DNA of 64,000 nucleotides from Escherichia coli (lineage in GTDB: Bacteria; Pseudomonadota; Gammaproteobacteria; Enterobacterales; Enterobacteriaceae), in NCBI RefSeq assembly GCF_016026235.1, contig NZ_CP065613.1; one strand, 5' to 3'. The notes below the pieces were generated by a model that saw nothing but the letters and a program-made list of their open reading frames with translations, made no database searches and was not told where the DNA came from. Below are positions 2,127 through 43,301 of the stretch, piece by piece. Positions within the stretch are counted from its first letter, which is position 1, and each line of letters starts with the position of its first letter. The translations under genes and the position numbers were made by a program.

Positions 2127-2160
2127 GAATTACTCTCGCCACGTTAACGAGAGTAATTTT
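2127..2160. terminator. hairpin downstream of gspM (candidate operon terminator)
   Basis: Inverted repeat aattactctcg / cgagagtaatt followed by tttt, located 3' of the gspM stop. Confidence 0.3.
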
Positions 2161-2183
2161 ATTGATATTAATCTCCTGATACT

Positions 2184-2720: not shown

Positions 2721-2721
2721 G

Positions 2722-4874: not shown

Positions 4875-4876
4875 GA

Positions 4877-6404: not shown

Positions 6405-6407
6405 TGC

Positions 6408-6863: not shown

Positions 6864-6879
6864 GTGATAACTCCGTAAA

Positions 6880-8103: not shown

Positions 8104-9596
8104 TACGCCTCCATGGTTACCCGCAGAACTTCATCGAGAGAGGTTTCTCCGGCGAGCACTTTCTCAATGCCGTTGCTGCGGATACCCGCAGAGTGTTGTC
8201 GGACATAACGTTCCAGCTCCAGCTCCCCGGCCTGACGGTGGATCAAATCACGCAATGTGGCATCCACCACGATCAGCTCATGGATGGCAGTCCGTCCGCG
8301 AAAACCTTTGTGATTACAGGCGGGACAGCCCTGTGGATGGTACAGAGTGACGGTACGGGCGTCGGTAATTCCCAGCAGGCGTTTTTCTTCGTCAGTGGCT
8401 GGTGCGGGCTGGCGGCAGTCGGGACACAGCGTGCGAACCAGTCGCTGCGCCATCACGCCCGTCAGACTGGAAGAGAGCAGGAAAGGCTCCACGCCCATAT
8501 CCTGCAAACGTGTGATCGCCCCCACCGCTGTGTTGGTATGCAGCGTGGAAAGGACCAGGTGTCCGGTAAGTGAAGCCTGGACGGCGATTTCTGCGGTTTC
8601 GGTATCGCGGATTTCACCGACCATCACCACATCTGGGTCCTGACGCAAAATCGCGCGCAGCCCACGGGCAAAGGTCATGCCGACGCGGGTGTTAACCTGC
8701 GTCTGACCGATCCCTTCAATCATGTATTCGATGGGATCTTCAACCGTGAGAATGTTGCGCGAATGGTTGTTCAGCTCCTGCAATCCGGCGTACAGCGTGG
8801 TGCTTTTGCCGGAACCCGTCGGCCCCGTCACCAGAAAGATGCCGTGCGGTTTGTGTAACAGCTGGCGCAACTGCGCGGTCAGTTGCTGGCTAAGCCCCAG
8901 ACGCTCCAGCGTCAGGCGGGCCTGGTTTTTGTCCAGCAGTCGCAGCACCACGCGCTCGCCCCAGGCAGAAGGCATGGTGGAGACACGCACGTCAATCGCC
9001 CGGCCGCCCAGCAACAGCGCAATACGTCCATCCTGCGGCACGCGCTTTTCGGCAATGTCCAGCCGCGCCATCACCTTGATACGCGATACCAGCAGCGAGG
9101 CCAGTTTGCGCCCCGGGCGCAGCATTTCATGTAATGTGCCGTCAACACGAAAACGGATCACCAGACTCTTTTCAAATGTCTCGATGTGAATATCCGAAGC
9201 GCCTTCTTTAATCGCCTCTGCCAGCATAGCGTTGATCAGTTTGATGATTGGCGCGTCGTCGTCGCTTTCCAGCAGATCTTCCGTTTCCGGCAGTTCTTCG
9301 GCGAGGGTAAAAAAATCCTCAGCAGAACCGAGATCTTCCATCAACTGGCGAGCTTCGGAAGAGTCCCGCTGCCAGACCGCATTCAGCCGCTGTTCAAATT
9401 CGGCCTCGTCGATTTGCCGCAGCGTAAAGGGCGCGTTCAGCCCCCGCTGCAGCTCCTGCAAAACAGAGAGCGATAGCGGATGAACGTGGAGGATCTCCAG
9501 CGACGCTTCGCACCATGCCACCAGGCTAAACCGACGGCTGAAACTGTAGGGCAGACGCACGGTGTTGGCGGTGGTTTCCTGTGCTACAGGCACCAT
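8103..9596 (-). CDS. gspE: type II secretion system ATPase E
   Basis: Walker [10 protein letters not shown] and a C-terminal CPDC...CPAC tetracysteine motif; 497 aa. Confidence 0.85.
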
Positions 9597-27999: not shown

Positions 28000-28764
28000 A
28001 TGAAAGATGAACGTCGCCCTATTTGCGAAGTGGTTGCAGAGAGTATCGAACGGTTAATTATCGACGGCGTACTGAAGGTCGGTCAGCCGCTTCCCTCGGA
28101 ACGTCGACTGTGTGAAAAGCTCGGCTTCTCACGCTCCGCACTGCGTGAAGGGCTGACCGTGCTGCGCGGGCGCGGGATTATTGAAACGGCGCAGGGTCGC
28201 GATTCTCGTGTCGCACGGCTTAATCGGGTGCAGGACACCAGCCCGCTAATTCATCTGTTCAGCACGCAGCCGCGAACGCTGTACGATCTGCTTGATGTTC
28301 GCGCATTGCTGGAGGGCGAATCGGCAAGGCTGGCGGCAACGCTGGGAACGCAGGCTGATTTTGTTGTGATAACCCGCTGTTATGAAAAAATGCTCGCCGC
28401 CAGTGAGAACAACAAAGAGATTTCGCTGATCGAACATGCGCAGTTGGATCACGCTTTCCATCTCGCCATTTGTCAGGCTTCTCACAATCAGGTGCTGGTG
28501 TTTACGCTGCAATCATTGACCGATCTGATGTTTAATTCAGTGTTTGCCAGCGTAAATAATCTCTACCATCGACCACAGCAAAAAAAGCAGATCGATCGCC
28601 AGCATGCGCGGATCTACAACGCGGTGTTGCAGCGGCTGCCGCACGTCGCCCAGCGCGCAGCACGCGATCATGTGCGGACCGTGAAAAAGAATCTCCACGA
28701 TATCGAGCTGGAAGGCCACCATTTGATTCGCTCGGCGGTGCCGCTGGAGATGAACCAGAGTTAG
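28000..28764 (+). CDS. glcC: GntR/FadR-family transcriptional activator of the glc operon
   Basis: Start at MKDERRPICEVVAESIER; the track ORF begins at an upstream TTG. Confidence 0.85.
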   Translation: MKDERRPICEVVAESIERLIIDGVLKVGQPLPSERRLCEKLGFSRSALREGLTVLRGRGIIETAQGRDSRVARLNRVQDTSPLIHLFSTQPRTLYDLLDVRALLEGESARLAATLGTQADFVVITRCYEKMLAASENNKEISLIEHAQLDHAFHLAICQASHNQVLVFTLQSLTDLMFNSVFASVNNLYHRPQQKKQIDRQHARIYNAVLQRLPHVAQRAARDHVRTVKKNLHDIELEGHHLIRSAVPLEMNQS

Positions 28765-28770
28765 CTGGTA

Positions 28771-29913
28771 TTAAATTTGCTTTTCATACAATCGGTAACG
28801 CTTGTACGGCTCCGCCCCAATGCGTTCCAGCATGTTATTCATGCCTGTATTGGTTTCGAGGATCCATGACATCTCCAGCGCATCGATCTTCCGGCGGGCA
28901 AACGGATCGCGTAAGGCTTCAATCAATAACAGCGCAATCACCGGGCCGATGCGGCTGAACTGATACTCGTCGCGCACGCCCATCAGCGGTACTCGCGCAG
29001 TTCGCACACCGCTGACTTTCAAACGCCACAGCAATTTTGCCCAGCCGAAGGGAAAGAGCGATCCGTTCAGATCGGCAATCGCCTCGTTGATGTTCGGCAA
29101 GCCGACAATAAACGCGCAGGGTGCAGAATCAATCTCAGCGATATAGATCATATCGTCCGGCACCAGATATTTAAGTTGATCGCCCATGGTCGCGAATTCA
29201 TGTTCGGTAAACGGCACAAATCCCCAGTTGTGCTGCCAGCCAGAGTTGAAAATCTCACGCAGGATCTGCATTTCTTCGGCAAACCGCTGACGATTGATGC
29301 AGCGAATGGTCACCTTTTTGCGCACCTGATCCATCAGTTTTTTTAGCGCCGGAGAGAAAGTGAGATCGGTTCGCTGCATCCACCACGCCAGTAAATCAAT
29401 GCCTTTGTGATAACCCAGTTGTTCAATATGCGCGGCATACCACGGTTTGCCGTGTGGCATCATCGCACAGGGTGGTGTGTCAAAACCTTCAATCAGTAAT
29501 CCGCTTTCCTGATTGATATTCAGGCTGAAAGGACCGCTGATCTTACTTGCACCTTGTGACTTCAACCACGCTTCCGCTGCGCCAAACAACGCGGCAAAAA
29601 CCTGCGGATCATCAATGGCGTCAATCATGCCGAAATGACCGGTATCTTCACCGTAACGCTCACGGTGCAAGGTATCTATTTGCGCGGTAATACGCCCAAC
29701 TATCTGCCCCGCTTTTTTTGCCACCCACGCCTGCCAGATGATATGGTCCGTCCCCGGATTTTTCGCAGACAAATGCTCGTTGCGTTCAATGAATAAAGGG
29801 GGTATCCAGTTTGGATCGTCGGGATAAAGTAATGACGGAAAAGCGATAAATGCCTTAAGGTCATTTTTATTAATTACTTTTTCAATTTTAATCATCAGCA
29901 GATCGCATTCCAT
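28771..29913 (-). CDS. yghO: YghO-family protein, putative GNAT-like N-acyltransferase
   Basis: 380-aa ORF convergent with glcC and divergent from the FAAL operon; the acyltransferase assignment is inferred, not motif-proven. Confidence 0.55.
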   Translation of the reverse strand: MECDLLMIKIEKVINKNDLKAFIAFPSLLYPDDPNWIPPLFIERNEHLSAKNPGTDHIIWQAWVAKKAGQIVGRITAQIDTLHRERYGEDTGHFGMIDAIDDPQVFAALFGAAEAWLKSQGASKISGPFSLNINQESGLLIEGFDTPPCAMMPHGKPWYAAHIEQLGYHKGIDLLAWWMQRTDLTFSPALKKLMDQVRKKVTIRCINRQRFAEEMQILREIFNSGWQHNWGFVPFTEHEFATMGDQLKYLVPDDMIYIAEIDSAPCAFIVGLPNINEAIADLNGSLFPFGWAKLLWRLKVSGVRTARVPLMGVRDEYQFSRIGPVIALLLIEALRDPFARRKIDALEMSWILETNTGMNNMLERIGAEPYKRYRLYEKQI

Positions 29914-30283
29914 AGTTCTGTGGGTAACAAATAATTAACGGTGACAAACAGGTTGCAACAGCAACGAATGGCACCTTAATAATCAACCCAATGAATACAA
30001 ACGACGAATAAATAGTATTTATTAATGATTACGATAAGGTCAAAGACTACACAGAAGCGCCACAATGCCTTTTGTCGATTTAAGGCGACCGGACAAGGCT
30101 TCTTCTTAATATATTCATAAATTAAATATCATTCACAATAAAAACAAAAAACTTAAACTCATTATTTAAATCAATGTTCATTTTCACACCGATGAAAATA
30201 CTATCTCATTTATCTTTTATGCCTATATAATCCACCGCATTATTGTCATTTTATTTTTGATATCCAATTTTTTCGTGGTGTAT
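29914..30283. promoter_or_regulatory. AT-rich divergent promoter region between yghO and the FAAL operon
   Basis: About 370 bp of very AT-rich DNA with A/T tracts between two divergent genes. Confidence 0.35.
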
Positions 30284-32005
30284 ATGTCTAATAAAATCTT
30301 TACGCATTCCCTACCTATGCGCTATGCCGATTTTCCAACGCTGGTTGATGCTTTGGACTACGCCGCTCTGAGTAGCGCCGGAATGAATTTTTATGACAGA
30401 CGTTGCCAACTTGAAGATCAACTGGAATATCAGACGTTAAAAACGCGTGCCGAAGCTGGTGCGAAGCGGTTGTTATCGCTGAACCTGAAAAAAGGCGAAC
30501 GCGTGGCGCTGATTGCCGAAACGAGTAGCGGGTTCGTAGAGGCTTTTTTTGCCTGTCAGTATGCTGGCTTAGTCGCCGTCCCGTTGGCGATTCCAATGGG
30601 CGTCGGTCAGCGGGATTCCTGGAGCGCCAAACTCCAGGGTTTACTGGCAAGTTGCCAGCCCGCAGCCATTATCACTGGTGATGAGTGGTTGCCACTGGTC
30701 AATGCCGCGACGCATAACAACCCCGAATTACATGTTTTAAGCCACGCCTGGTTTAAGGCATTACCGGAAGCCGATGTTGCGCTCCAGCGTCCAGTTCCGA
30801 ACGATATCGCCTACCTCCAGTACACCTCCGGCAGCACCCGTTTTCCCCGTGGCGTCATTATCACCCATCGCGAAGTGATGGCTAATCTACGTGCTATAAG
30901 CCACGATGGCATTAAATTACGCCCTGGCGACCGCTGCGTCTCCTGGCTGCCTTTCTACCATGATATGGGACTGGTCGGCTTTCTCCTGACCCCCGTCGCC
31001 ACGCAACTTTCAGTAGATTATTTGCGCACTCAGGATTTTGCCATGCGTCCTTTGCAATGGCTTAAATTGATCAGTAAAAATCGCGGCACCATTTCCGTTG
31101 CGCCGCCGTTTGGCTATGAATTGTGCCAGCGCCGCGTGAATGAAAAAGATCTCGCTGAACTGGATCTTTCCTGCTGGCGCGTCGCTGGTATTGGTGCAGA
31201 ACCCATCTCCGCAGAACAACTCCATCAATTCGCTGAATGTTTCCGTCAGGTTAACTTTGACAATAAAACTTTCATGCCGTGCTACGGACTGGCAGAAAAT
31301 GCGCTGGCTGTCAGCTTCTCTGATGAAGCCTCCGGGGTTGTGGTTAACGAAGTGGATCGCGACATCCTCGAATATCAGGGTAAAGCCGTCGCGCCGGGTG
31401 CAGAGACACGCGCCGTATCGACTTTCGTCAACTGCGGCAAAGCGTTGCCGGAACATGGTATTGAAATCCGCAATGAAGCAGGTATGCCGGTCGCGGAACG
31501 TGTGGTAGGCCATATTTGCATCTCCGGTCCCAGTCTGATGAGCGGTTACTTTGGCGACCAGGCTTCGCAAGACGAGATTGCCGCGACGGGCTGGTTAGAC
31601 ACCGGCGACCTCGGTTATCTGCTGGACGGTTATCTGTATGTCACCGGACGCATTAAAGATCTGATTATTATTCGTGGCCGTAATATCTGGCCGCAGGATA
31701 TTGAATATATTGCGGAACAGGAACCGGAAATTCATTCTGGCGATGCGATTGCTTTTGTTACCGCCCAGGAAAAAATCATTTTGCAGATCCAGTGTCGGAT
31801 CAGCGATGAAGAACGTCGCGGACAGCTTATCCACGCGCTGGCAGCACGGATCCAAAGCGAATTTGGCGTAACAGCGGCTATCGATCTGTTGCCGCCCCAC
31901 AGCATTCCCCGAACGTCCTCCGGCAAGCCTGCCCGTGCGGAAGCGAAAAAACGTTATCAGAAGGCTTATGCTGCAAGCCTTCATGTGCAGGAATCCCTGG
32001 CATGA
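30284..32005 (+). CDS. fatty-acyl-AMP ligase / acyl-ACP synthetase-like adenylating enzyme
   Basis: Adenylation motifs YLQYTSGSTRFPRGV and GWLDTGDLGYL; about 573 aa from the internal ATG (track ORF starts at TTG 30257). Confidence 0.75.
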   Translation: MSNKIFTHSLPMRYADFPTLVDALDYAALSSAGMNFYDRRCQLEDQLEYQTLKTRAEAGAKRLLSLNLKKGERVALIAETSSGFVEAFFACQYAGLVAVPLAIPMGVGQRDSWSAKLQGLLASCQPAAIITGDEWLPLVNAATHNNPELHVLSHAWFKALPEADVALQRPVPNDIAYLQYTSGSTRFPRGVIITHREVMANLRAISHDGIKLRPGDRCVSWLPFYHDMGLVGFLLTPVATQLSVDYLRTQDFAMRPLQWLKLISKNRGTISVAPPFGYELCQRRVNEKDLAELDLSCWRVAGIGAEPISAEQLHQFAECFRQVNFDNKTFMPCYGLAENALAVSFSDEASGVVVNEVDRDILEYQGKAVAPGAETRAVSTFVNCGKALPEHGIEIRNEAGMPVAERVVGHICISGPSLMSGYFGDQASQDEIAATGWLDTGDLGYLLDGYLYVTGRIKDLIIIRGRNIWPQDIEYIAEQEPEIHSGDAIAFVTAQEKIILQIQCRISDEERRGQLIHALAARIQSEFGVTAAIDLLPPHSIPRTSSGKPARAEAKKRYQKAYAASLHVQESLA

Positions 32006-32916
32006 ATCAAACTGTCGCGGTGACGGGCGCTACCGGTTTTATCGGTAAATATATTATCGATAACCTGCTCGCCCGCGGCTTTCACGTTCGCGCATTGACG
32101 CGTACTGCCCGCGCTCACGTCAATGACAATCTCACCTGGGTGCGCGGTTCGCTGGAAGATACTCATTCACTTAGCGAACTGGTTGCCGGAGCCAGTGCGG
32201 TGGTCCATTGCGCTGGGCAAGTGCGCGGACACAAAGAAGAGATTTTTACCCACTGTAACGTTGACGGCAGCCTGCACCTGATGCAAGCGGCAAAAGAGAG
32301 CGGCTTTTGCCAACGTTTTCTGTTTATCTCTTCGCTGGCGGCGCGCCATCCCGAGCTCTCCTGGTACGCAAATTCCAAACACGTCGCCGAACAACGGCTG
32401 ACTGCAATGGCTGACGAAATTACGCTGGGCGTTTTTCGCCCGACAGCCGTGTATGGTCCCGGCGATAAAGAGTTAAAACCGCTGTTTGACTGGATGCTGC
32501 GCGGCCTGCTGCCACGACTTGGTGCACCAGATACACAGCTCTCTTTCCTGCACGTCACCGATTTTGCGCAAGCAGTGGGTCAGTGGTTAAGCGCCGAAAC
32601 TGTACAGACGCAAACCTATGAATTATGCGATGGCGTCGCTGGCGGCTATGACTGGCAACGCATACAGCAACTTGCCGCCAACGTCCGTTGCGGTTCCGTG
32701 CGAATGGTTGGTATTCCTCTGCCGGTACTCACCTGCCTTGCGGATATCAGTACCGCGTTGAGTCGCCTGGCAGGTAAAGAACCTATGCTGACCCGCTCGA
32801 AAATTCGTGAATTAACCCACGCCGACTGGTCGGCAAGTAATAACCGTATTTCTGAAGATATTAATTGGTTTCCCGGGATTAGCCTGGAACACGCATTACG
32901 CAACGGGCTATTTTGA
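32002..32916 (+). CDS. NAD(P)-dependent epimerase/dehydratase-family (extended SDR) reductase
   Basis: N-terminal Rossmann motif VAVTGATGFIGKYI; start overlaps the upstream stop by 4 nt. Confidence 0.7.
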   Translation: MNQTVAVTGATGFIGKYIIDNLLARGFHVRALTRTARAHVNDNLTWVRGSLEDTHSLSELVAGASAVVHCAGQVRGHKEEIFTHCNVDGSLHLMQAAKESGFCQRFLFISSLAARHPELSWYANSKHVAEQRLTAMADEITLGVFRPTAVYGPGDKELKPLFDWMLRGLLPRLGAPDTQLSFLHVTDFAQAVGQWLSAETVQTQTYELCDGVAGGYDWQRIQQLAANVRCGSVRMVGIPLPVLTCLADISTALSRLAGKEPMLTRSKIRELTHADWSASNNRISEDINWFPGISLEHALRNGLF

Positions 32917-32947
32917 TTGTCTTGTTTAAAGGTGTGTTAACGTTTCT

Positions 32948-33196
32948 ATGGTAAATCGTGAAATAGTAATGGATTACATCCTTTCCTGTTTACAGGATTT
33001 GGTCGAAAACGGTGTGGAAATTAAGCCCGACAGCGATCTCGTCAACGATCTTGGCCTGGAGTCGATCAAAGTGATGGATCTCTTAATGATGCTGGAAGAC
33101 AGATTCGATATTTCCATTCCTATTAATATTCTGCTGGATGTCAAAACCCCTGCGCAATTAATGGAAACTCTACTTCCATGGCTGGAGAATAAATAA
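32948..33196 (+). CDS. acyl carrier protein
   Basis: 82 aa with the phosphopantetheine-attachment signature DLGLESIKVMDL. Confidence 0.7.
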   Translation: MVNREIVMDYILSCLQDLVENGVEIKPDSDLVNDLGLESIKVMDLLMMLEDRFDISIPINILLDVKTPAQLMETLLPWLENK

Positions 33197-34368
33197 TGGG
33201 GCTATACGATAAATATGCGCGCCTTGCTGGCGAGCGACTGCAATTTAGTGACAACGGGTTAACACCGTTTGGCACCTGTATTGATGAAGTGTATTCCGCC
33301 ACCGAAGGCCGGATCGGCAATAAAAAAGTGATTCTGGCCGGGACCAATAATTATCTCGGTTTAACCTTTAATCATGATGCCATCAGCGAAGGTCAGGCAG
33401 CGTTAGCGGCCCAAGGCACCGGCACCACCGGTTCTCGTATGGCAAACGGCAGTTATGCGCCGCACCTGGCGTTAGAGAAAGAGATTGCCGAGTTTTTCAA
33501 TCGCCCTACCGCTATCGTTTTTTCAACCGGTTATACCGCTAATTTAGGCGTCATCAGCGCACTTGCCGACCATAACGCCGTGGTGTTACTGGATGCCGAC
33601 AGCCACGCCAGTATTTATGACGCCTGTTCTCTCGGTGGCGCGGAAATTATTCGTTTCCGCCATAACGATGCTAAAGATCTGGAACGGCGCATGGTTCGCC
33701 TCGGTGAACGGGCGAAAGAGGCGATTATCATCGTTGAGGGCATCTACAGCATGCTCGGTGACGTTGCGCCGCTGGCGGAAATTGTTGATATCAAACGTCG
33801 TCTCGGTGGTTATTTGATTGTCGATGAAGCGCATTCGTTTGGCGTGTTAGGCGCAACAGGGCGCGGACTGGCTGAAGCTGTCGGCGTTGAAGATGATGTG
33901 GATATTATCGTTGGTACTTTCAGTAAAAGTCTGGCCTCGATTGGCGGTTTTGCTGTCGGTTCGGAAGCGATGGAAGTGCTGCGCTACGGCAGCCGCCCGT
34001 ATATTTTTACCGCCTCTCCTTCTCCGTCCTGCATTGCGACCGTGCGCTCGTCGTTAAGAACTATTGCCACACAACCAGAGCTGCGGCAAAAGCTGATGGA
34101 TAACGCCAACCATCTGTATGACGGTCTGCAAAAACTGGGTTATGAGTTAAGTTCACATATTAGCCCGGTAGTGCCAGTAATAATCGGTTCGAAAGAGGAA
34201 GGTTTACGCATCTGGCGCGAGCTTATCTCGCTGGGCGTGTATGTGAATCTTATCCTGCCGCCTGCCGCGCCTGCAGGCATCACGCTGCTGCGCTGTAGCG
34301 TAAATGCTGCCCACAGTCGTGAGCAAATCGATGCCATCATTCAGGCATTTGCTACTCTGAAGCAGTAA
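33196..34368 (+). CDS. PLP-dependent alpha-oxoamine synthase (BioF/Kbl/serine palmitoyltransferase family)
   Basis: 390 aa with the conserved PLP-lysine context GTFSKSLASIGGF and a DEAHSFG motif; start overlaps the ACP stop by 1 nt. Confidence 0.75.
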   Translation: MGLYDKYARLAGERLQFSDNGLTPFGTCIDEVYSATEGRIGNKKVILAGTNNYLGLTFNHDAISEGQAALAAQGTGTTGSRMANGSYAPHLALEKEIAEFFNRPTAIVFSTGYTANLGVISALADHNAVVLLDADSHASIYDACSLGGAEIIRFRHNDAKDLERRMVRLGERAKEAIIIVEGIYSMLGDVAPLAEIVDIKRRLGGYLIVDEAHSFGVLGATGRGLAEAVGVEDDVDIIVGTFSKSLASIGGFAVGSEAMEVLRYGSRPYIFTASPSPSCIATVRSSLRTIATQPELRQKLMDNANHLYDGLQKLGYELSSHISPVVPVIIGSKEEGLRIWRELISLGVYVNLILPPAAPAGITLLRCSVNAAHSREQIDAIIQAFATLKQ

Positions 34369-34373
34369 TGTGA

Positions 34374-34406
34374 GCCCGCCGTGGTGTTTGCGCCACGGCG
34401 GGTTTA
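34374..34406. terminator. bidirectional terminator hairpin between convergent operons
   Basis: cccgccgtggtg / tttg / cgccacggcggg perfect stem followed by ttt, between the AOS stop and the convergent permease gene. Confidence 0.55.
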
Positions 34407-35483
34407 ATGTTGTCTGTCATACCAATACACCAGGCTCAACGCCACCAACACAAACGCTACCGGTAAACCGAGCGCGGTAACAGGTGCGCTTAACGCAAAT
34501 AGCAATCCCAGATTAACCATGATTTGATAGCTGATCCAGGTGAGTAAGCCCACGATGACGCCTACAGCGAGACGGCTACCCATCCCAGGCGAACGCGGGG
34601 CAGTAAAGGTAAACGGCACAGCCAGCAAAATCATCGCCAGGGTCAGGATGGGTTGCCCCAGTTTTTCCCACAGTGCAAGGCGGTATTCGCTGCTGGGTTG
34701 CCCGGTTTCCTGCAAATAATGGATGTAATGATTAAGCTGACGGACAGAAAAAGTATTCCCCGGCATTGATAACTCTTCAAGATTCATACTGGTGAAGGCC
34801 GATTGCCAGGCAAGATTATCTAATGTTTCCAGCGTTTCTTTGCCATTCAGCCATTTTTTATGATTCACACCATGCAGGACCCACGTTTTGTCGTCTTTAA
34901 TGGTGGCACTGCGTGCATAAATGTAGGATTCAAGCGAGAGATCGTCGGGATAATGAAATATCTCCACGCCCACCGGCTGGCCCTGCTCGTTCAGCGATTT
35001 CACCGTCACAAATTCATTACCACGCCTGGCCCACAGCATATTGCCGGTAATGTCATCGTCCTCCCCCAACGCGGTGGCGGTCGATTTGATTTGCAGCGCC
35101 TGTTGCTGCAATGGCGACGCCACCCACTCATCTATCGCGCCTAACGAAACAGTCCACAATATCCCGGCAACCAGCGCCACCAGTGCAATACGGAAGATAG
35201 AAAACCCCGTGCTGCGAATGGCGGTAAGCTCACTGTTTTTCGATAACTGCCCCAGGCCAACAATCCCTCCCAATAAGGCGATAAACGGCGAAAGTTCGAC
35301 CAGTGTGCGCGGTAAGGTCATTAGCACCACCAGCACCGCCTGAGTCCAGCGATAACCGCCCGGGCTGACATCATCCAGTTCGTTAATCAGGTTGAAGGTG
35401 GTAAAAAGCGGCAGCAATAGCCCTGCGGCGGCGGCAAAACCGAGAAAGAGATGACGGATTAAATAGCGACTGAAAACATTCAT
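34404..35483 (-). CDS. LptG-like permease (YjgP/YjgQ family), paralog
   Basis: Start at MNVFSRYLIRHLF gives a 4-nt ATGA overlap with the upstream gene; six predicted TM segments around a large periplasmic loop. Confidence 0.6.
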   Translation of the reverse strand: MNVFSRYLIRHLFLGFAAAAGLLLPLFTTFNLINELDDVSPGGYRWTQAVLVVLMTLPRTLVELSPFIALLGGIVGLGQLSKNSELTAIRSTGFSIFRIALVALVAGILWTVSLGAIDEWVASPLQQQALQIKSTATALGEDDDITGNMLWARRGNEFVTVKSLNEQGQPVGVEIFHYPDDLSLESYIYARSATIKDDKTWVLHGVNHKKWLNGKETLETLDNLAWQSAFTSMNLEELSMPGNTFSVRQLNHYIHYLQETGQPSSEYRLALWEKLGQPILTLAMILLAVPFTFTAPRSPGMGSRLAVGVIVGLLTWISYQIMVNLGLLFALSAPVTALGLPVAFVLVALSLVYWYDRQH

Positions 35484-36550
35484 CGGGAAAATTTCTGCAG
35501 CAAAGAGAAGTCGCGTGCGACCAGCATCAGCAGGCCCATTAGCATGAGTCCGGGTACTAACCACAAACCAGGAATGAGGGGAATCGCGCCGTTAGCCACC
35601 AGCGTACGGCAGACGTCGCCGCCATAAAAAATGGCAATAAACAGCAACGTCAGTGGCAATAATGTTGAAAATCGCCCTTGCCGCGGTTTTACCCGACTTA
35701 ATGAAATGGCCAGCAGCGCCATCAACAATGCTGTCAGGCCACGGCTTTGCCGCCATTGCAGTTCGGCATGATCGGCAGGAAATACAGAGCGTGCCAGCTC
35801 CGTGACCGATTTTGCTTTGCGTTTGACGTTAGGGCTTTGATCCAGCGGATTCAGATGTAATTGCAGATTACGGTAGATCTGTTCATTGTCGTCACGCCCC
35901 TGATGATCGAGAAGATAGGCAGTGCCGTTGTGCAACATAACGGTCGGTTTCTCGGGTGATGGGTCAACCACATCAACCGAACGGGCGCGGAAAATGCGGG
36001 TTCGATTGGCAGTAGAAGTATAAATCAGCGCGTCAGTCAGGCGATTATTATCCTGATCAACCGTCTGCGAAAGGATCATTCGTCCGTTATCGTTAGTGTT
36101 AAATTTCTTTGCCCGCAACTGGCGAACATCCAGCTCCGACTGCGACTGCTGCTCCAGTTGATAAATCTGCGCATAAGCCCACGGACGACCATACATCGAC
36201 AGAAGGGTGACAAAAATACTTAGCGGTATCGCCAGATAAAGAACGGCTTTGTACAAGCGTCCCGGACTGCCCCCCGCCGCAGAGATAGCGGTAATTTCCG
36301 AGTCGGTATACATCTGCCCTAGCGTCACGCCAACTGACACATACAGACCAACAGGTAACAACATCTCCAGTGCAATCAGCACTTTGTAGAAAACGATATC
36401 CAGCACAACATCAAGAGCTAATGTCCCATTTGCCGCTTCGGTCAGATAACGCTGTGCGGAGTAGCTGGCGAAAATAAAGATCAGAAAACCGACGATAATC
36501 AGCACCAGACGGCGCGTACCACGCATGATGTAGTGTTCAACCAGCTTCAT
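35480..36550 (-). CDS. LptF-like permease (YjgP/YjgQ family), paralog
   Basis: 356 aa with the same architecture as the neighbour; TM1-loop region GQMYTDSEITAISAAG resembles recalled LptF (YTESEITVMHACG). Confidence 0.6.
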   Translation of the reverse strand: MKLVEHYIMRGTRRLVLIIVGFLIFIFASYSAQRYLTEAANGTLALDVVLDIVFYKVLIALEMLLPVGLYVSVGVTLGQMYTDSEITAISAAGGSPGRLYKAVLYLAIPLSIFVTLLSMYGRPWAYAQIYQLEQQSQSELDVRQLRAKKFNTNDNGRMILSQTVDQDNNRLTDALIYTSTANRTRIFRARSVDVVDPSPEKPTVMLHNGTAYLLDHQGRDDNEQIYRNLQLHLNPLDQSPNVKRKAKSVTELARSVFPADHAELQWRQSRGLTALLMALLAISLSRVKPRQGRFSTLLPLTLLFIAIFYGGDVCRTLVANGAIPLIPGLWLVPGLMLMGLLMLVARDFSLLQKFSR

Positions 36551-36580
36551 CTCACTAACGCCCTCAATCCTTTGAATTTT

Positions 36581-37144
36581 TTATTCATTGATCAGTTTCT
36601 GCGCCAGCGCAATGACATGATCTACCTCTTCCGGCGTCAGGCTGCCGTCCTTTGCCCACTGAATTTGCCCGGTTTTATTCAGCACCAGAATGGTTGAACT
36701 CTGCTCCGGCAAGCGCCAGGCAACGCGTCCCTGTCCATTGCCGTCAATAACGAATTGCGCCCACGGATAGCGGCGTTTATTTTTTTCGATTTTGCCAACG
36801 ACAAAATAGCCAGTACCAAAGATGGCATCATCAGTGTTCACAATGGTGGTGGGCTGAAAACGATCCTGTGGAAAGTTTGCCGCTTCAACCGCTTTAATTA
36901 ACAGTGAGTTCTTCTTCTTCGCTGACTTACGCCCGGCGATATACTGGATAATGCGGACTTTTCCCGCCAATTGTGTGCTGTTCCACTTTTGGTAGTGAAT
37001 TTCGTCGTCGCTATTCAGAAGCAGCTCGCCGCCTTCCTGAATATAAACAGGGGTAACCGTTTTGCCAGTGACGAAATTGTGTGCCTGCACACCCGGGGCT
37101 AAGAGCATGATAATCAGCGCAATAATCAAACGAGATGACATCAT
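36581..37144 (-). CDS. periplasmic protein with signal peptide (YtfJ-like)
   Basis: Signal peptide MMSSRLIIALIIMLLAPGVQA; resemblance to YtfJ is from memory only. Confidence 0.45.
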   Translation of the reverse strand: MMSSRLIIALIIMLLAPGVQAHNFVTGKTVTPVYIQEGGELLLNSDDEIHYQKWNSTQLAGKVRIIQYIAGRKSAKKKNSLLIKAVEAANFPQDRFQPTTIVNTDDAIFGTGYFVVGKIEKNKRRYPWAQFVIDGNGQGRVAWRLPEQSSTILVLNKTGQIQWAKDGSLTPEEVDHVIALAQKLINE

Positions 37145-37152
37145 TGCTCCGG

Positions 37153-37977
37153 TTATAGCGGAAAACGCGAAATCAGCAGCTCTAAGCGCTGGCGAATATC
37201 GCTATCCAGCGCCACCGGTGCATCATACGACTGGCGGTTTTCCATATCATCCGCCACCATGTCGTCGTGTTTATCCCCCATCAGGCCATTAATGGCGGCG
37301 AGGAAACGGGAAATCTGTAACGCCTCTTTATTTTCAGGATCAAGCGATCTTAAGGTGTCGTAATAAGAAACCTGCTGGCTGATGATTTTTCGCACATCAT
37401 GAAATTCCCTGCCGGTTAGTCGCGGTTTGGCAATTATCTCTTTCAGGGCATGCATTTGCTTTTGCCGATAGGCAATAAAACCGCTTACGCTTTCTAACTG
37501 GCTATGGCGTAATGAATAGTTCACCAACGACCAGACCGGAGAGCTTAAATAAATTCGTAACAGGTTGCCGTAATACGACACAATATTTTTCTTACCGTTA
37601 CGAAATCCGTCCTGAAAACGTCCCAGAAAAACGGTCGTTTTGCCGAATAAAAATCTGGCCTGATGCTTTTTTAAATACAGCCGTTGTGCAAAACGTAGAT
37701 GCTTGTAGCGCGCTCGCATGTATTTAAACTGTTTACGCTCGTCTGTCGTCAGCTCATCGCCTTTGGCTTGTTTGCGAATTAAACGAAGTAATTCCTGACG
37801 ATCAACGCCATTGAGCCAGAATTGCAGGCATAACGCGTAATTATCATGGATGATTTCGGTGGTACAACATAGTGCGATAGTCGGCGGCAAACTGACCTGG
37901 GCATCAACAACATCATCTTCCTCAATCGCAACAAATAGATGCTCGCTCGCCTCAAGCGGGAAATATTTTCTCATCAT
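37153..37977 (-). CDS. hypothetical cytoplasmic protein (274 aa)
   Basis: ORF whose start overlaps the flippase stop by 1 nt; no recognisable motif. Confidence 0.45.
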   Translation of the reverse strand: MMRKYFPLEASEHLFVAIEEDDVVDAQVSLPPTIALCCTTEIIHDNYALCLQFWLNGVDRQELLRLIRKQAKGDELTTDERKQFKYMRARYKHLRFAQRLYLKKHQARFLFGKTTVFLGRFQDGFRNGKKNIVSYYGNLLRIYLSSPVWSLVNYSLRHSQLESVSGFIAYRQKQMHALKEIIAKPRLTGREFHDVRKIISQQVSYYDTLRSLDPENKEALQISRFLAAINGLMGDKHDDMVADDMENRQSYDAPVALDSDIRQRLELLISRFPL

Positions 37978-39326
37978 CAGGATTTCTCTCCGGCTGCGTT
38001 ATAAAGCAAGGAATGGCGCTGAAAAAAAGCCTTTAAGATCGGAATTAGCGAAAGCACCACATCCAGACATTGACCGCCGAAATAAGCAAACGCTGCTCCC
38101 AGCACGCCAAACAGATGACAGAACATGAACAGCAATACGATGTAGCCGATTGAGGCGATGGTTTGCGCCACGAGAAAAGCGCGCTGTTTTCCCGCCATCA
38201 ATAGCAATGACTCCTGAGGGAAGCCCAGCATCGAGATCACAATTGCGCCCAGCATCACCTGAATCAGGTCATACGCTTCGAGATACTTAACGCCAAACAC
38301 CAGCGAAATGAGCGGCTTGCCGACGATCAACACCGCGAGCGCCACCAGAATACCGATTCCGCCCGCCAGTAAACCGGACTTCACACCTAACAACCACGGT
38401 CTGGTGGTGCGCGGATCTAAACGCATCACCTCTGGGTAAAAACTTTTACCCAGCAAACCCGCTGGCGTTCCGGCGGCGTCGAAGAATGTCATGGCGATTT
38501 TAAATAACCCGGCGACAGCGGGTCCTAACACGATCCCCACCAACACTGTGCTGCACGAGTTACGCGCCGACCAGATGGAGTGGGCAATGTTGGTTGACCA
38601 GACAAAACTCCACGCGCCTTTAATGTGTCGGGCAGACTCAAACAGATTCAATTTGAAGGCGTTATGGATATTTCTGCGGCGTAATTCGCGCGCGGCAAAC
38701 CACCAGTACATGGTGCCGCCAACCAGATTCGACACGTACCAGGCAATAACAAAACCCGCAAAACCAAAGTCAAAATACCAGGCTGCGACGCTCCCCGCTG
38801 CGCGCAGAAAAGGTTTCGTCGCCTGCTGTACAGCAATCAAATCAAAGCGATCTACCGCACGCAGAATGCCGGTCGGCGTGGAGGAAGCCATTGAAGGAAT
38901 GAGCGTGCAATACAGCGCTGCCAGCCAAAAGCTTTGGTCATCCAGACCTAATGAATGGGAAAGAAAAGGGAGTAAGGCAATGCCGCCGACAATCGCCACC
39001 GCGCCGCTGACGATATCCAGCGAGAAGGAAAATGAGACGACATTGCGAAATTGCTGCGGATTATTGTTGGTTAATGCTGGTGTTCCGTACTGAACCACCA
39101 GCTGCCATGTCTGAAACTTAATAAAATCGCTGATCGACTTGGCGTACGATTGCACAATCACCAGTACGCCAAACATGGCGGGCGTCATCCCTTTACCGGC
39201 ACACGAGAGCGCCAACAGACCCAGCAAGGCGCTCACGACATTACTGGAGCCTAACCAGGCGCTATTGCGAATAATGGTGCGAAACGCGCCATCTGCAAAC
39301 CAATGTTTGATGTTAAAACCCGCCAA
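37977..39326 (-). CDS. yghQ: MOP-superfamily (Wzx-like) polysaccharide/lipid flippase
   Basis: 449-aa protein with about 12 hydrophobic segments. Confidence 0.65.
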   Translation of the reverse strand: MAGFNIKHWFADGAFRTIIRNSAWLGSSNVVSALLGLLALSCAGKGMTPAMFGVLVIVQSYAKSISDFIKFQTWQLVVQYGTPALTNNNPQQFRNVVSFSFSLDIVSGAVAIVGGIALLPFLSHSLGLDDQSFWLAALYCTLIPSMASSTPTGILRAVDRFDLIAVQQATKPFLRAAGSVAAWYFDFGFAGFVIAWYVSNLVGGTMYWWFAARELRRRNIHNAFKLNLFESARHIKGAWSFVWSTNIAHSIWSARNSCSTVLVGIVLGPAVAGLFKIAMTFFDAAGTPAGLLGKSFYPEVMRLDPRTTRPWLLGVKSGLLAGGIGILVALAVLIVGKPLISLVFGVKYLEAYDLIQVMLGAIVISMLGFPQESLLLMAGKQRAFLVAQTIASIGYIVLLFMFCHLFGVLGAAFAYFGGQCLDVVLSLIPILKAFFQRHSLLYNAAGEKS

Positions 39327-39371
39327 TTCAGCCTGACCTTATCGTTGATAGTAAAAAGTATCCCGCCAGCC

Positions 39372-40130
39372 TTAAGTTAAACTTCGGCGGTCAGAAACGA
39401 TGGCAACCAGAGAAACCGCCTTCTGTGCCTGTTCCAGCACTTCGCTGTAGGGCGCTCTGGAATCAATCTCAAGAATTTTTGTGCCGTTATAGCCAATCGT
39501 CGACATAACACTGATTTTGTCCTGCAGCTCGGCATAGTCATGGTCAGGCTTGCGGGAGATGGCAGTCTCAATATCAATGCCCAGGCGAATAATTAATTCC
39601 GGGCGATATTGCGCCATTTGTTGGTATAAACGCCGTTCGCGCTGCGCCAGAAACATGCTGATTTTCCCGGTCGCACGTTCGACGCCAATCCCCGGTCCGT
39701 CATAATAAAAGCCCGAAATTTCAGCCTGCGGGAAGCGATCGCTGACCACCAGAACGCCACTTTGCGCCAGTCGCTGAACCTTGCGTAGATTCGCCATTCT
39801 TCGCAGCGAGAAGCAGTACATAATCACCGCCGCCCATAGCGCCGGAGATTTGGTTTTCATGCTTTGGGTTTTCGAGGATTTGGCCGCCAGTCGCCGTTCC
39901 AGCCAGACGCCAACCAACGGCAATCGTTTGATTTTGTCGCCGTCTTCGCCGGAGAGCAGCCCCAAATAGCGGCGCTCGGTTTGCCAGTGTTGTTGCAGCG
40001 ATTTCACCAGGTCGGTGGTCAGTGTGGATTTACCGGTGCCATCACACCCGACCACCGCAATCAGCCCCGGAATGTAGTTGGGCTGCGGCGCGGTTGTACT
40101 AATAACAGTTTGTGTTTGTAGTGCATCCAT
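39372..40130 (-). CDS. yghR: P-loop NTPase, kinase-like
   Basis: Walker A VGCDGTGKST; shares DRFPQ and SRKPDH motifs with two neighbouring paralogs. Confidence 0.65.
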   Translation of the reverse strand: MDALQTQTVISTTAPQPNYIPGLIAVVGCDGTGKSTLTTDLVKSLQQHWQTERRYLGLLSGEDGDKIKRLPLVGVWLERRLAAKSSKTQSMKTKSPALWAAVIMYCFSLRRMANLRKVQRLAQSGVLVVSDRFPQAEISGFYYDGPGIGVERATGKISMFLAQRERRLYQQMAQYRPELIIRLGIDIETAISRKPDHDYAELQDKISVMSTIGYNGTKILEIDSRAPYSEVLEQAQKAVSLVAIVSDRRSLT

Positions 40131-40161
40131 TCGTTAAATCATCCCCTATCCATTTTGGTGA

Positions 40162-40875
40162 TCAAGAAAGCGCGGCGTGAATTGCGCGTAGTGACGCTTG
40201 CAGAATTTCATCGGCTGGTTGCCGACCATCCAGTTCAAGGATCTTTGCGCCATTGAATGTCAATTGCGGCGTAACGGCGATTTTTTCCTGTAACGCTGCC
40301 AGTTGGTGGTCAGGTTTACGCGCAAACGCGGTTTGTTCATCAATGCCAAGACGAATCAACAATACGGGTAAATAAGACGCCATCCATTGGTACAGCTTCA
40401 ACTCGCGCTGCCTTAACATTTTTATCCAACCGTTACCGCCCGTGGTTTTTGCCAATTGCGGGCCATCAAAGCGAAAACCCGGCACTTCAACCTGCGGGTA
40501 GCGGTCGGTGATGAGCAGATGGCCTTGCTGGCTTCTACACAACATTTTGCGAAACTTGTACGCCCGCCAGCAGGAAAGCAGATAGATAACCAGCGCAGTA
40601 ATATTGCCAGGCGGTGTTGAGGGCTTTTCGTGCACATGTGCCGCTTTACTTCGCAGATAACGCCCAAAAGGTGCGCCAATAACAGGGAGCTGTGAAATCC
40701 ATTCGCCAATTCGCCCGGACGATTGCCCGAGATAAATGCGTTCTGTTGGCATTCTTGCTGCCAGTTCATTTACCAGGCTTGCCGTGAGGGTCGATTTACC
40801 TGAACCATCACATCCTACAATGGCAATAACACGCACTGGCGTGGAATTAATTATTGACATATTACGTTGATTCAC
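40162..40875 (-). CDS. yghS: P-loop NTPase, kinase-like
   Basis: Walker A VGCDGSGKST, plus DRYPQ and ARKPDH motifs. Confidence 0.65.
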   Translation of the reverse strand: MNQRNMSIINSTPVRVIAIVGCDGSGKSTLTASLVNELAARMPTERIYLGQSSGRIGEWISQLPVIGAPFGRYLRSKAAHVHEKPSTPPGNITALVIYLLSCWRAYKFRKMLCRSQQGHLLITDRYPQVEVPGFRFDGPQLAKTTGGNGWIKMLRQRELKLYQWMASYLPVLLIRLGIDEQTAFARKPDHQLAALQEKIAVTPQLTFNGAKILELDGRQPADEILQASLRAIHAALS

Positions 40876-41048
40876 GAAAAACCCGGCAGTAAATAATGTA
40901 TTGAATATTACGTGGTCCGTGCTCAGAATATCCGTTCAACCTTATTGTGACAATGGTTAATTGTGACATTGACCTGAATTACGCTTTCATAAAAACATAT
41001 TAACCAAATAAATATTTTGGATGGATATTTAAATTTAAGGATATATTC

Positions 41049-41741
41049 ATGCAGTCAATAACACCTCCATTAATTGCCGTTATTGGTAGCGATGGTTCAG
41101 GCAAGTCAACGGTGTGTGAACATCTCATTACCGTTGTCGAAAAATATGGTGCTGCCGAAAGAGTTCATTTAGGAAAACAAGCCGGAAATGTCGGTCGTGC
41201 AGTGACAAAATTACCGTTGATGGGAAAATCCTTACATAAAACAATTGAACGAAATCAGGTGAAAACAGCAAAAAAATTGCCAGGACCAGTTCCGGCGCTG
41301 GTAATTACAGCGTTTGTCGCCCGTCGCTTACTGCGCTTTCGTCATATGCTTGCCTGTCGTCGTCGCGGGTTAATTGTTCTAACCGACCGTTATCCTCAGG
41401 ACCAAATTCCTGGCGCTTACGATGGTACGGTGTTCCCACCTAACGTTGAAGGTGGTCGTTTTGTCTCATGGCTGGCAAGCCAGGAACGTAAAGCGTTTCA
41501 CTGGATGGCGAGCCATAAGCCTGATCTGGTCATCAAACTCAATGTCGATCTAGACGTGGCCTGCGCGCGTAAGCCTGACCACAAAAGGGAATCGCTGGCA
41601 AGAAAGATAGCCATAACGCCACAGTTAACCTTTGGTGGTGCACAACTGGTTGATATCGACGCCAATCAGCCACTGGAACAGGTGTTAGTTGATGCAGAAA
41701 AAGCGATTACGGATTTTATGACCGCGCGTGGTTATCACTAG
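41049..41741 (+). CDS. yghT: P-loop NTPase, kinase-like
   Basis: Walker [10 protein letters not shown], plus DRYPQ and ARKPDH motifs; divergent from yghS. Confidence 0.65.
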
Positions 41742-41751
41742 CCAAAAATGG

Positions 41752-41782
41752 AAATGCCCGATCGCCAGGACCGGGCATTTTC
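41752..41782. terminator. bidirectional terminator hairpin between yghT and pitB
   Basis: aatgcccg / 11-nt loop / cgggcatttt between two convergent genes. Confidence 0.5.
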
Positions 41783-41789
41783 AGGAAGG

Positions 41790-43301
41790 TTAAATCAACT
41801 GCAATGCTATCCAGTACAGCCCACCAGAAAGAAAAATCGCCGCCGGTAAAGTAAATACCCACGCCATCAGGATGCTGGTTACCGTTTTACGCTGTAACCC
41901 ACCGCCGTCCACCACCATCGTCCCTGCAACTGCAGACGAGAGGACGTGTGTTGTGGAGACGGGCATCCCAATATAACTGGCAAGACCGATAGACACTGCC
42001 GCCGTCATTTGTGCCGCCATGCCTTGCGCATACGTCATGCCGCGCTTACCAATCTTCTCACCGATGGTCATCGCTACACGACGCCAGCCAATCATGGTGC
42101 CAATGCCGAGCGCCAGTGCTACCGCCATGATGATCCACACCGGAGCGTACTCAATGGTGCTTAACATATCGCTGCGAAGTTTTTTCAGCAGGTTCTGGTC
42201 TTCTTTACTGACGCCTGGCGGTTTCGCCAGCTTCGCGGAGGTATCAGAGATGCACAGCATAATGCACAGCATAATGCGGCGCAGCTGGCTGCGCTGACTC
42301 ACGCTTAACGGCTCGTAACTTTCCATATTGCCTGGCAGCATCGTTTTAACGCGCGCAATCGCATCAAAGGTATTTGCCGGATGACAGTGAAACTCCGTCA
42401 CTTGCGCGCCATCAGTAGATGCCGCAGGCAATGGAGGTTCCATCGTAATCAACTTCTGCGGCAGTTCAGGATGCTGTTGCAGGTAGTGTTCGAAGTTGGT
42501 GACGGCATCGCGGGTACGGGTAATTTCATAGCCGGACGCGTTCATATTGACGACGAAGCCAGCAGGGGCAATCCCCACCAATACCAGCATCACCAGGCCG
42601 ATCCCTTTCTGCCCGTCGTTAGCGCCGTGCGAAAACGCCACGCCCGCAGCGGAAACAATCAGCGCAATACGCGTCCAGAATGGCGGCTTACGTTTGCCTT
42701 TTTTCTTTTTGCGATCTTCCGGAATGCGGTGAATACGGTCACGCTTTTTCGTTCCGCTCCAGTAGCGTCGCAGCAGGAATATCAGGCCTCCCGCAATGAC
42801 CAGGCCGACGATAGGGGAAACAATCAGCGAGGAGAAAATTTTGGTCACTTCACGCAGGTTTAACGCATCCATCACCGATGAGCCGGTTAACAGCGCGTTG
42901 GTTAAACCGATGCCGATAATCGCACCAATCAAGGTGTGCGAACTGGAGGCCGGTAAACCAAAGAACCACGTTCCCAGGTTCCAGATAATCGCCGCCAGCA
43001 GCATGGAAAAGACCATCGCCAGACCGTGAGTTGACCCCATATTCAGCAGCAAATCGGTTGGTAACATATGGACAATGGCATAGGCAACGCTAAGTCCGCC
43101 CAATAACACGCCAAAAAAGTTAAAAAATGCCGCCATCACCACAGCAAGTTGTGGTTGCATGGCACGAGTATAAATAACGGTTGCCACCGCATTCGCCGTA
43201 TCATGAAAACCATTGATTGCTTCGTAGAACAACACAAATGCCAGAGCAAGTAATAACAAAAGCCCTGTGTATATATCAAGGCCAACAAATAAATTTAGCA
43301 T
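41790..43301 (-). CDS. pitB: low-affinity inorganic phosphate transporter
   Basis: 503-aa PiT-family polytopic protein in the position of pitB; contains an in-frame 12-bp tandem duplication (see findings). Confidence 0.8.

Follow-up and report, generated by a model that had tools for sequence, protein, structure and literature searches.

What does E. coli make with a compact set of four genes that places a fatty acyl-AMP ligase (FAAL), an SDR reductase, an acyl carrier protein (ACP), and an alpha-oxoamine synthase (AOS) side by side? These four family assignments were made in an earlier note on the window (the whole 64,000-nucleotide stretch of DNA analyzed here), and they are correct. The same note argued that the acyl donor is carried by a dedicated ACP rather than by CoA or the housekeeping ACP, a view that matches published work on proteins that are 96–100% identical. 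The AOS is a serine palmitoyltransferase, and the pathway is that of bacterial sphingolipid (dihydroceramide) synthesis. The four genes very probably constitute, in E. coli, the sphingolipid-initiation operon of alpha-, beta-, and gamma-proteobacteria, aasR-epi(cerR)-acpR-spt. The operon itself is already known: RefSeq names its genes, its FAAL has been crystallized (3PBK), and the key biochemistry has been published.

Operon layout and genomic setting

The window is E. coli chromosome, and the operon lies between glcC/yghO and pitB. Its features are as follows.

29914..30283, no strand: 370-bp, AT-rich intergenic spacer separating the operon from the divergent yghO, presumed promoter/regulatory region
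30284/30317-32005, 32002-32916, 32948-33196, and 33196-34368, + strand: ORFs of the four-gene operon aasR-epi/cerR-acpR-spt, intact
30284..32005, + strand: aasR, fatty acyl-AMP ligase (EcFAAL), the acyl-AcpR synthetase; RefSeq start 30317
32002..32916, + strand: epi/cerR, NDUFA9-like extended-SDR, predicted 3-keto reductase (long-chain base or ceramide)
32948..33196, + strand: acpR, dedicated acyl carrier protein, DLGLES motif with phosphopantetheine site Ser39
33196..34368, + strand: spt, serine palmitoyltransferase, PLP lysine Lys244
34371-34406, no strand: probable terminator, a GC-rich hairpin (16-bp stem) where spt and the lptG-like gene converge

All four ORFs are free of internal stops. 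The overlaps described earlier are both borne out, with the FAAL stop and SDR start sharing four nucleotides (ATGA, 32002-32005) and the ACP stop and AOS start sharing base 33196 (TAATG); 31 nt separate the SDR and ACP genes. Judging from this spacing, the four genes are probably cotranscribed on one message and translationally coupled. The motifs TSGSTRFPRGV, GATGFIGK, DLGLES, and GTFSKS were likewise found in the FAAL, SDR, ACP, and AOS, respectively, as claimed, and family-model searches placed both enzymes well beyond chance: the FAAL reached 875 bits with NF006624 (cutoff 600), and NF047599, the equivalog for serine palmitoyltransferase (cutoff 500), gave 599.9 bits for the AOS.

The presumed regulatory region upstream has a GC content of 31% versus 52% for the operon, and the equivalent region is at 24% in Hafnia and 35% in Erwinia. 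A sigma-70 consensus scan of 29914..30283 performed no better than on shuffled sequence, and an Rfam search of the same interval returned 0 matching families. The one convincing terminator-like hairpin lies 3′ of the last operon gene, beginning 3 nt past the spt stop, and has 10 GC pairs in its stem and a 4-nt loop; the remaining terminator-like and promoter-like matches occurred no more often than in shuffled sequence.

The locus corresponds to ECD_02851-02854 plus yghO/ECD_02850 of BL21(DE3) (PMC9386255), with which it shares junctions and neighbors; the two operons are 98.1% identical at the DNA level and differ by strain-level substitutions only. The same gene order, aasR-epi-acpR-spt, has been found in Hafnia, Erwinia, and Nitrosomonas (Neut_0458-0461). 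Caulobacter crescentus (CC_1165-CC_1162 plus CC_1154) shares the gene order and all five functions, although its proteins are only 34–53% identical to those of E. coli (published table, BL21 proteins). In Sphingomonadaceae, by contrast, aasR is distant from acpR-spt.

AasR and its dedicated carrier protein

The RefSeq start of aasR is at 30317 (MRYADF...), whereas the earlier note had placed it at 30284 (MSNKIF...). The upstream start agrees with the crystallized construct, and in Hafnia and Erwinia, too, aasR is called with a comparable short extension at the N-terminus. With both Met codons conserved, the start is not fixed by sequence alone. AasR matches 3PBK at about 565 of 573 residues (about 98.6%) and BL21 ECD_02851 at 98.2% (10 substitutions). 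Its ANL adenylation core lies at residue 181, and FadD and acyl-CoA ligase models all scored under their own cutoffs. The residues that block the CoA pocket (W224, M231, F279, and helix T252-R258) are present, as are the gate residues of the alternative pocket (T83, P107, and T252). Altogether, 12 of 12 literature-named EcFAAL residues were found, at the paper's numbering minus 3. AasR would adenylate a free long-chain fatty acid and, because its CoA pocket is blocked, would hand the acyl group on to AcpR, at its phosphopantetheine arm.

Experimental work supports this chemistry. EcFAAL, which shares the MSNKIF N-terminus and all named pocket residues with AasR, transferred 14C-laurate to holo-EcACP, with none reaching apo-ACP and none transferred without ATP (2021, PMC8460268); the EcACP used, UniProt A0A2X1NC35, may not be the ACP adjoining this FAAL. 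Acyl transfer from AasR_Ec to AcpR_Ec was deduced from in vivo results (PMC9386255). The EcFAAL studies (3PBK, PMC8460268) took the enzyme as a general model for FAALs and drew no link to sphingolipids, and a 2025 FAAL review makes no mention of sphingolipid or AasR.

AcpR is a protein of 82 aa (9.4 kDa, pI 4.05) with its DLGLES motif at residues 34-39. Housekeeping ACP models all fell below cutoff (best 35.6 vs 71), and the protein is 100% identical to BL21 ECD_02853 (AcpR_Ec; 0 substitutions), which incorporates beta-alanine, i.e., carries phosphopantetheine (2022, PMC9386255). Its gene directly precedes spt, an adjacency also seen in Hafnia and Erwinia. AasR_Ec failed with the Caulobacter carrier AcpR_Cc (PMC9386255).

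The alpha-oxoamine synthase is a serine palmitoyltransferase

Spt scores above the serine palmitoyltransferase cutoff and below four other curated cutoffs: bioF (333.9 < 426.45), Kbl (297.3 < 460), ALAS (219.3 < 338.55), and CqsA type (221.3 < 428). An AOS that accepts only BioF or Kbl substrates, the outcome named earlier as contrary to the pathway, is excluded on these scores. The closest solved relatives are the serine palmitoyltransferases of Sphingomonas paucimobilis and S. wittichii (2JG2 and 2X8U; E about 1e-111), which match over the full length. In Spt, GTFSKS occupies residues 240-245, and K244, H137, D210, and H213 align with K265, H159, D231, and H234 of 2JG2, with the R390 equivalent also conserved. 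One difference is R378 of the S. paucimobilis enzyme, which aligns with Leu in Spt (YVNLILPP in Spt vs YVNMARPP) and which we take to contact the serine carboxylate. The R378 equivalent is not treated as a defining residue here, since the BL21 enzyme ECD_02854, 99.7% identical to Spt (1 substitution), uses L-serine (PMC9386255).

A BioF/Kbl/CqsA-type or cysteate-using AOS that makes a non-sphingoid amino-ketone is scarcely credible. Such an enzyme would belong to the same superfamily and would explain the sub-threshold matches to those models, but the scores place Spt on the other side of each cutoff, the match to a cysteate acyltransferase structure is far weaker (E 7e-60 vs 2e-111 for the serine palmitoyltransferase), and the L-serine activity of the BL21 enzyme points away from it. 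With PLP as cofactor, Spt would condense acyl-AcpR and L-serine, releasing CO2 and yielding 3-oxo-sphinganine. Co-expression of AasR_Ec, AcpR_Ec, and SPT_Ec gave a product migrating like 3-oxo-sphinganine (2022, PMC9386255), the identification for the E. coli enzymes being by TLC co-migration. SPT_Ec also prefers palmitoyl-AcpR over palmitoyl-CoA or palmitoyl-AcpP, as measured in vitro with acyl-AcpR from Caulobacter (PMC9386255). Published experiments on nearly identical E. coli proteins have thus demonstrated both fatty acid loading and serine condensation, and the reconstitution proposed in the earlier note is essentially covered by that work.

A proposed route from 3-oxo-sphinganine to dihydroceramide

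In the remaining step, dihydroceramide would arise through amide linkage of an acyl chain by YghO and reduction of the 3-keto group by the SDR (Epi/CerR). These predicted roles derive from homology to Caulobacter genes and from gene position; the publication on the BL21 locus says only that the two proteins "might" act (PMC9386255). YghO is encoded next to the operon:

28771..29913, - strand: yghO (the RefSeq name), divergent from the operon, homolog of Aca/bCerS, the N-acyltransferase (bacterial ceramide synthase) of Caulobacter

BL21 YghO (ECD_02850) and CC_1154 share 44% identity at 98% coverage (E 1e-107, published table), and YghO had no match in searches of Pfam, NCBIfam, and PDB. The SDR is 96.4% identical to BL21 ECD_02852 (11 substitutions), itself 34% identical to CC_1164 (E 7e-38; published table, BL21 protein), and its gene sits between aasR and acpR, as in Caulobacter. 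It opens directly with the Rossmann motif (MNQTVAVTGATGFIGK), with GATGFIGK at residue 9, GATGFIG as the GxxGxxG NAD(P)-binding motif, and YANSK as the YxxxK catalytic motif. Pfam matches were to Epimerase/NmrA/3Beta_HSD, and NDUFA9 chains matched among solved structures (E 7e-11 to 7e-10). Neither its N-terminus nor its interior has a strongly hydrophobic segment (the maximum Kyte-Doolittle 19-residue mean is 1.65, at residue 235), and so the sequence carries no sign of export.

Reduction and N-acylation could conceivably proceed in either order. Given slightly less than an even chance is a route in which 3-oxo-sphinganine from Spt would first be acylated by cytoplasmic YghO (bCerS) to an oxidized ceramide; the SDR (CerR) would carry out the keto reduction only afterward, perhaps on the periplasmic side of the inner membrane. 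This is the order favored by genetics and localization in Caulobacter, where a cerR deletion accumulates oxidized ceramide and CerR was localized to the periplasm, with Spt and bCerS cytoplasmic (PMC11087976), and the NDUFA9-like E. coli SDR matches the description of CerR. Against it stand the absence of an export sign in the E. coli SDR and the lack of free NAD(P)H in the periplasm, a problem that the authors acknowledge (PMC11087976). The eukaryote-like order, whose chances also fall just short of even, follows the model of Olea-Ozuna/Padilla-Gomez: a cytoplasmic SDR would turn 3-oxo-sphinganine into sphinganine, which YghO would N-acylate to dihydroceramide. An SDR without an export signal suits this order, as do the sphinganine-like and ceramide-like spots of BL21 expressing the first three proteins, the former hinting at reduction of the free base in cells that produce 3-oxo-sphinganine (PMC9386255). 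These spots are known by TLC migration, however, and not by chemical identity, and the Caulobacter results speak for acylation first.

It is also conceivable, if improbable, that the operon survives as a silenced, cryptic relic and yields no lipid in E. coli under any natural condition. K-12 is deleted for the locus, with IS5 now at the site and no known defect, and the region upstream is AT-rich, a property of regions often silenced by H-NS. Moreover, no native E. coli sphingolipid has been shown, and empty-vector extracts of BL21(DE3) made no 3-oxo-sphinganine, which counts against the pathway generally (PMC9386255). Opposing this are the intactness of every ORF here, a locus at full length in 4062 of the 5426 complete genomes of E. 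coli (about three-quarters), and purifying selection, with dN/dS at 0.02–0.19 within the species and, for the operon vs BL21, at 0.02–0.18 (acpR is identical and gives no ratio). Between genera, the operon's synonymous sites are saturated and protein identity is 65–85%, and the whole block of genes in and around the operon is kept at 60–85% protein identity in Hafnia and Erwinia. The ceramide-like BL21 spots further suggest some native expression of the SDR and YghO (PMC9386255).

A conserved block of 13 genes

The operon and yghO are accompanied by a series of further genes:

34404-35483, - strand: second lptG copy (TIGR04408, 305.5 bits, above cutoff)
35480-36550, - strand: second lptF copy (TIGR04407, 318.4 bits, above cutoff)
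36581-37144, - strand: YtfJ-family protein, hydrophobic N-terminus suggesting a signal peptide
37153-37977, - strand: conserved 274-aa protein, no assigned fold
37977-39326, - strand: yghQ, full-length MOP-family flippase
39372..41741: yghR (-), yghS (-), and yghT (+), three paralogous P-loop proteins

Together, these make up a 13-gene block (28771-41741; yghO, aasR-cerR-acpR-spt, lptG2-lptF2-ytfJ-like-274 aa-yghQ-yghR-yghS, and yghT) that is intact in Escherichia, Hafnia, and Erwinia in differing chromosomal contexts, with the order of the YtfJ-like, 274-aa, and yghQ genes kept in the latter two. The second lptG and lptF copies are candidate permeases for sphingolipid extraction and export, and LptF2/LptG2 and a candidate flippase are likewise encoded at the Caulobacter locus. 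Where Caulobacter has cpgABC-type head-group genes, including a ceramide kinase of the DAG-kinase fold, E. coli has the three P-loop proteins, the YtfJ-family protein, and the uncharacterized 274-aa protein. Aligned with one another, YghR, YghS, and YghT are invariant at 43 columns, GxDGxGK[ST] and RKPDH among them; dTMP-kinase models gave 22–32 bits (cutoff 83), and PDB profile matches were weak (E about 1e-3) and mostly over the P-loop. Tentatively, the functional unit may be the entire block, which would make an undescribed complex sphingolipid, use its own LptF/G pair to send this lipid to the outer membrane, and build the head group with the P-loop and 274-aa proteins rather than with CpgABC-type enzymes.

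Significance for E. coli

Roughly three in four complete E. coli genomes, along with many other Enterobacterales, have an intact sphingolipid-initiation pathway under selection. K-12 is without it, and so the usual view of the E. coli lipidome derives from a deletion strain. If the 13-gene reading is true, the capacity to produce a lipid class missing from the K-12-based textbook lipidome would be present in most wild E. coli.

The four-gene operon and its products

The operon encodes a system that is already known, named, and in part structurally solved. Its four open reading frames, all of them intact, are arranged as follows:

30284-32005, + strand: FAAL (aasR), 573 aa
32002-32916, + strand: SDR (epi/cerR), 304 aa
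32948-33196, + strand: ACP (acpR), 82 aa
33196-34368, + strand: AOS (spt), 390 aa

The tight packing described in the earlier note was confirmed in every coordinate, including the overlaps of 4 nt between FAAL and SDR (ATGA) and 1 nt between ACP and AOS (TAATG); a gap of 31 nt separates SDR from ACP. All four of the diagnostic motifs it quoted were found in their respective proteins, at FAAL residue 181, SDR residue 9, ACP residues 34-39, and AOS residues 240-245. From this gene spacing, a single transcript and translational coupling of the four genes would be expected. RefSeq labels the products as a fatty acyl-AMP ligase, an NAD-dependent epimerase/dehydratase family protein, an acyl carrier protein, and the serine palmitoyltransferase Spt. 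The start codon of aasR is in dispute: RefSeq places it at an ATG at 30317 (MRYADF), yielding 562 aa, whereas the upstream start at 30284 (MSNKIF) is included in the crystallised construct (PDB 3PBK) and in the Hafnia and Erwinia gene calls.

Each product has a close counterpart in E. coli BL21(DE3), with identities of 98.2% for AasR (ECD_02851), 96.4% for the SDR (ECD_02852), 100% for AcpR (ECD_02853), and 99.7% for Spt (ECD_02854). AasR scores 875 bits against the FAAL model (cutoff 600) and is ~98.6% identical to 3PBK (“EcFAAL”) over all 573 residues. Moreover, all 12 of the EcFAAL residues named in the literature, comprising CoA-pocket blockers, gate residues of the alternative pocket, and the adenylate pocket, are present in AasR when the numbering is shifted by -3, an offset chosen by an offset scan (12/12 matches). 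EcFAAL transfers 14C-laurate to an “EcACP”, not necessarily the adjacent ACP, in an ATP- and phosphopantetheine-dependent manner (Patil et al. 2021, PMC8460268), and AasR_Ec functions with AcpR_Ec but not with the AcpR of Caulobacter (Padilla-Gomez et al. 2022, PMC9386255).

AcpR, a small acidic protein (pI 4.05), falls under every housekeeping-ACP cutoff. AcpR_Ec incorporates beta-alanine (Padilla-Gomez et al. 2022, PMC9386255) and therefore carries 4′-phosphopantetheine. In Hafnia alvei, a gene for an Sfp-type 4′-phosphopantetheinyl transferase (PF17837 and PF01648; 5011-5736 of the Hafnia locus, L003) adjoins the yghO-like gene and is plausible as a dedicated ACP activator; it has no counterpart at the E. 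coli locus.

Spt scores 599.9 against the serine palmitoyltransferase equivalog NF047599 (curated cutoff 500) and lies under the cutoffs of the BioF, Kbl, ALAS, and CqsA-type models. Among solved structures, the Sphingomonas SPTs are closest to it (E about 1e-111), and it keeps the PLP lysine (K244) together with equivalents of H159, D231, H234, and R390. Relative to the S. paucimobilis enzyme (PDB 2JG2), R378 is replaced by Leu (YVNLILPP), whereas the other active-site residues checked are kept. With L-[14C]serine, SPT_Ec strongly prefers palmitoyl-AcpR over palmitoyl-CoA or palmitoyl-AcpP (Padilla-Gomez et al. 2022, PMC9386255).

The proposal that a dedicated ACP supplies the acyl group to the PLP enzyme is thus sound, near-identical BL21 proteins having been shown to behave in this way (PMC9386255). 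Given the published AasR, AcpR, SPT, and EcFAAL experiments, the reconstitution suggested in the earlier note, from FAAL through holo-ACP to AOS, has essentially been done (PMC9386255, PMC8460268). A BioF- or Kbl-like substrate range for the AOS is excluded by the activity of SPT_Ec with L-serine and palmitoyl-AcpR.

Proposed pathway and order of steps

As published for near-identical proteins, AasR would convert a fatty acid and ATP to acyl-AMP and hand the acyl group to AcpR, and Spt would then form 3-oxo-sphinganine from acyl-AcpR and L-serine. By homology to Caulobacter, two further enzymes would take this product to dihydroceramide, YghO attaching the N-acyl chain and the SDR reducing the 3-keto group. 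The BL21 YghO protein is 44% identical to the Caulobacter N-acyltransferase Aca/bCerS (E 1e-107), and YghO had no match in Pfam, NCBIfam, or PDB sequence and profile searches. The BL21 SDR is 34% identical to the Caulobacter keto-reductase Epi/CerR (E 7e-38). The window's SDR, of the extended type, carries GATGFIG and YANSK motifs, and its solved relatives include NDUFA9, as in the published description of CerR.

Whether N-acylation precedes the 3-keto reduction is in dispute for Caulobacter, where genetics and localisation favour acylation first. The E. coli SDR, in whose sequence no export signal was seen, speaks against that order, as does a sphinganine-like spot observed in BL21.

The surrounding gene block and its conservation

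The window is a piece of the E. coli chromosome. Its first 18.4 kb carry sslE and the type II secretion (gsp) genes, which are followed by glcA-glcBGFED, glcC, yghO, and the operon; beyond it lie paralogs of lptG and lptF (lptG2 and lptF2), a YtfJ-family gene, an unknown gene encoding 274 aa, the flippase gene yghQ, yghR, yghS, yghT, pitB, gss, and the hyb operon. From 18451 to 64000, the window is 99.9% identical to strain FDAARGOS_943, which has a Mu-like prophage beyond glcA where the window instead has sslE and gsp; among the best matches listed, which span the whole stretch, identity over 1-18450 is only ~95.5%.

The genes from yghO to yghT form a 13-gene block (28771-41741) that recurs with order and orientation kept, and with different flanking genes, in Hafnia alvei (L003 5733-18927, a locus sequence that stops within the last block gene) and Erwinia sorbitola (L004 5476-18776). 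Block proteins are 60-85% identical between E. coli and these two, with catalytic motifs kept. This conservation in different chromosomal surroundings suggests that the block is one functional, possibly mobile unit. The tight spacing is mostly kept as well: FAAL and SDR overlap by 4 nt in Hafnia and lie 4 nt apart in Erwinia, and the ACP and Spt genes overlap as called in both. Proteins 63-87% identical to the SDR were found in E. albertii, Shimwellia, Citrobacter, Pluralibacter, Hafnia, Serratia, Rouxiella, Sodalis, Erwinia, Pantoea, and Kosakonia, among others. Further afield, locus tags indicate that Caulobacter and Nitrosomonas share the aasR-epi-acpR-spt order, and the Caulobacter locus also has second LptF and LptG copies and a flippase candidate.

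Within E. coli, at least 80% of a 10.5-kb yghO-yghQ query is covered in 4062 of 5426 complete genomes, and K-12 has remnants of yghO and yghQ alone, with IS5. BL21 extracts showed no native 3-oxo-sphinganine formation under laboratory conditions (PMC9386255), as a decaying, cryptic locus might. Even so, block-wide dN/dS values of 0.02-0.19 relative to BL21 (synonymous sites being saturated between genera) argue against such decay. The 370-bp interval between yghO and the operon (29914-30283) has 31% GC, and its Hafnia and Erwinia equivalents have 24-35%; low GC here could fit H-NS-type silencing and the missing native product in laboratory cultures.

A GC-rich hairpin with a 16-bp stem begins 3 nt past the spt stop codon, and it alone stands out among eight terminator-like matches in 29800-34500 (5.3 ± 2.1 in shuffles). 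The sigma-70 promoter scan of the same interval was uninformative (7 matches versus 5.3 ± 2.5), and no Rfam family reached the gathering threshold in 28000-42000.

Less characterised members of the block include the following:

34404-35564, - strand: lptG paralog; mechanical ORF opening at GTG 35564, 386 aa
37153-37977, - strand: 274-aa basic protein without a strongly hydrophobic segment
39372-40130, - strand: yghR, P-loop protein
40162-40875, - strand: yghS, P-loop protein
41049-41741, + strand: yghT, P-loop protein

The RefSeq start of the lptG paralog (35483; 359 aa) gives a 4-nt overlap with the lptF paralog stop. The 274-aa protein has no match in Pfam, NCBIfam, or PDB; its Hafnia and Erwinia counterparts share 60-63% identity with it, and its dN/dS within E. 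coli is 0.07. YghR, YghS, and YghT are paralogues with common invariant motifs (GxDGxGK[ST], DR[FY]PQ, and RKPDH), and PDB sequence and profile searches gave weak P-loop matches at most. Two of them are named “dTMP kinase” in RefSeq, a name that looks unsafe, since the scores are 22-32 bits where the cutoff is 83. A role as counterparts of the Caulobacter ceramide kinase is ruled out, as CpgB has a DAG-kinase (LCB5) domain. Literature searches found nothing functional on LptF2/G2, the flippase, the YtfJ-like or 274-aa proteins, yghO/Q/R/S/T, or native E. coli sphingolipids and the native product.

With the core chemistry established, the more interesting matters would seem to lie around the operon, namely its native product, the conditions that induce it, the order of the steps, and the roles of its neighbours.
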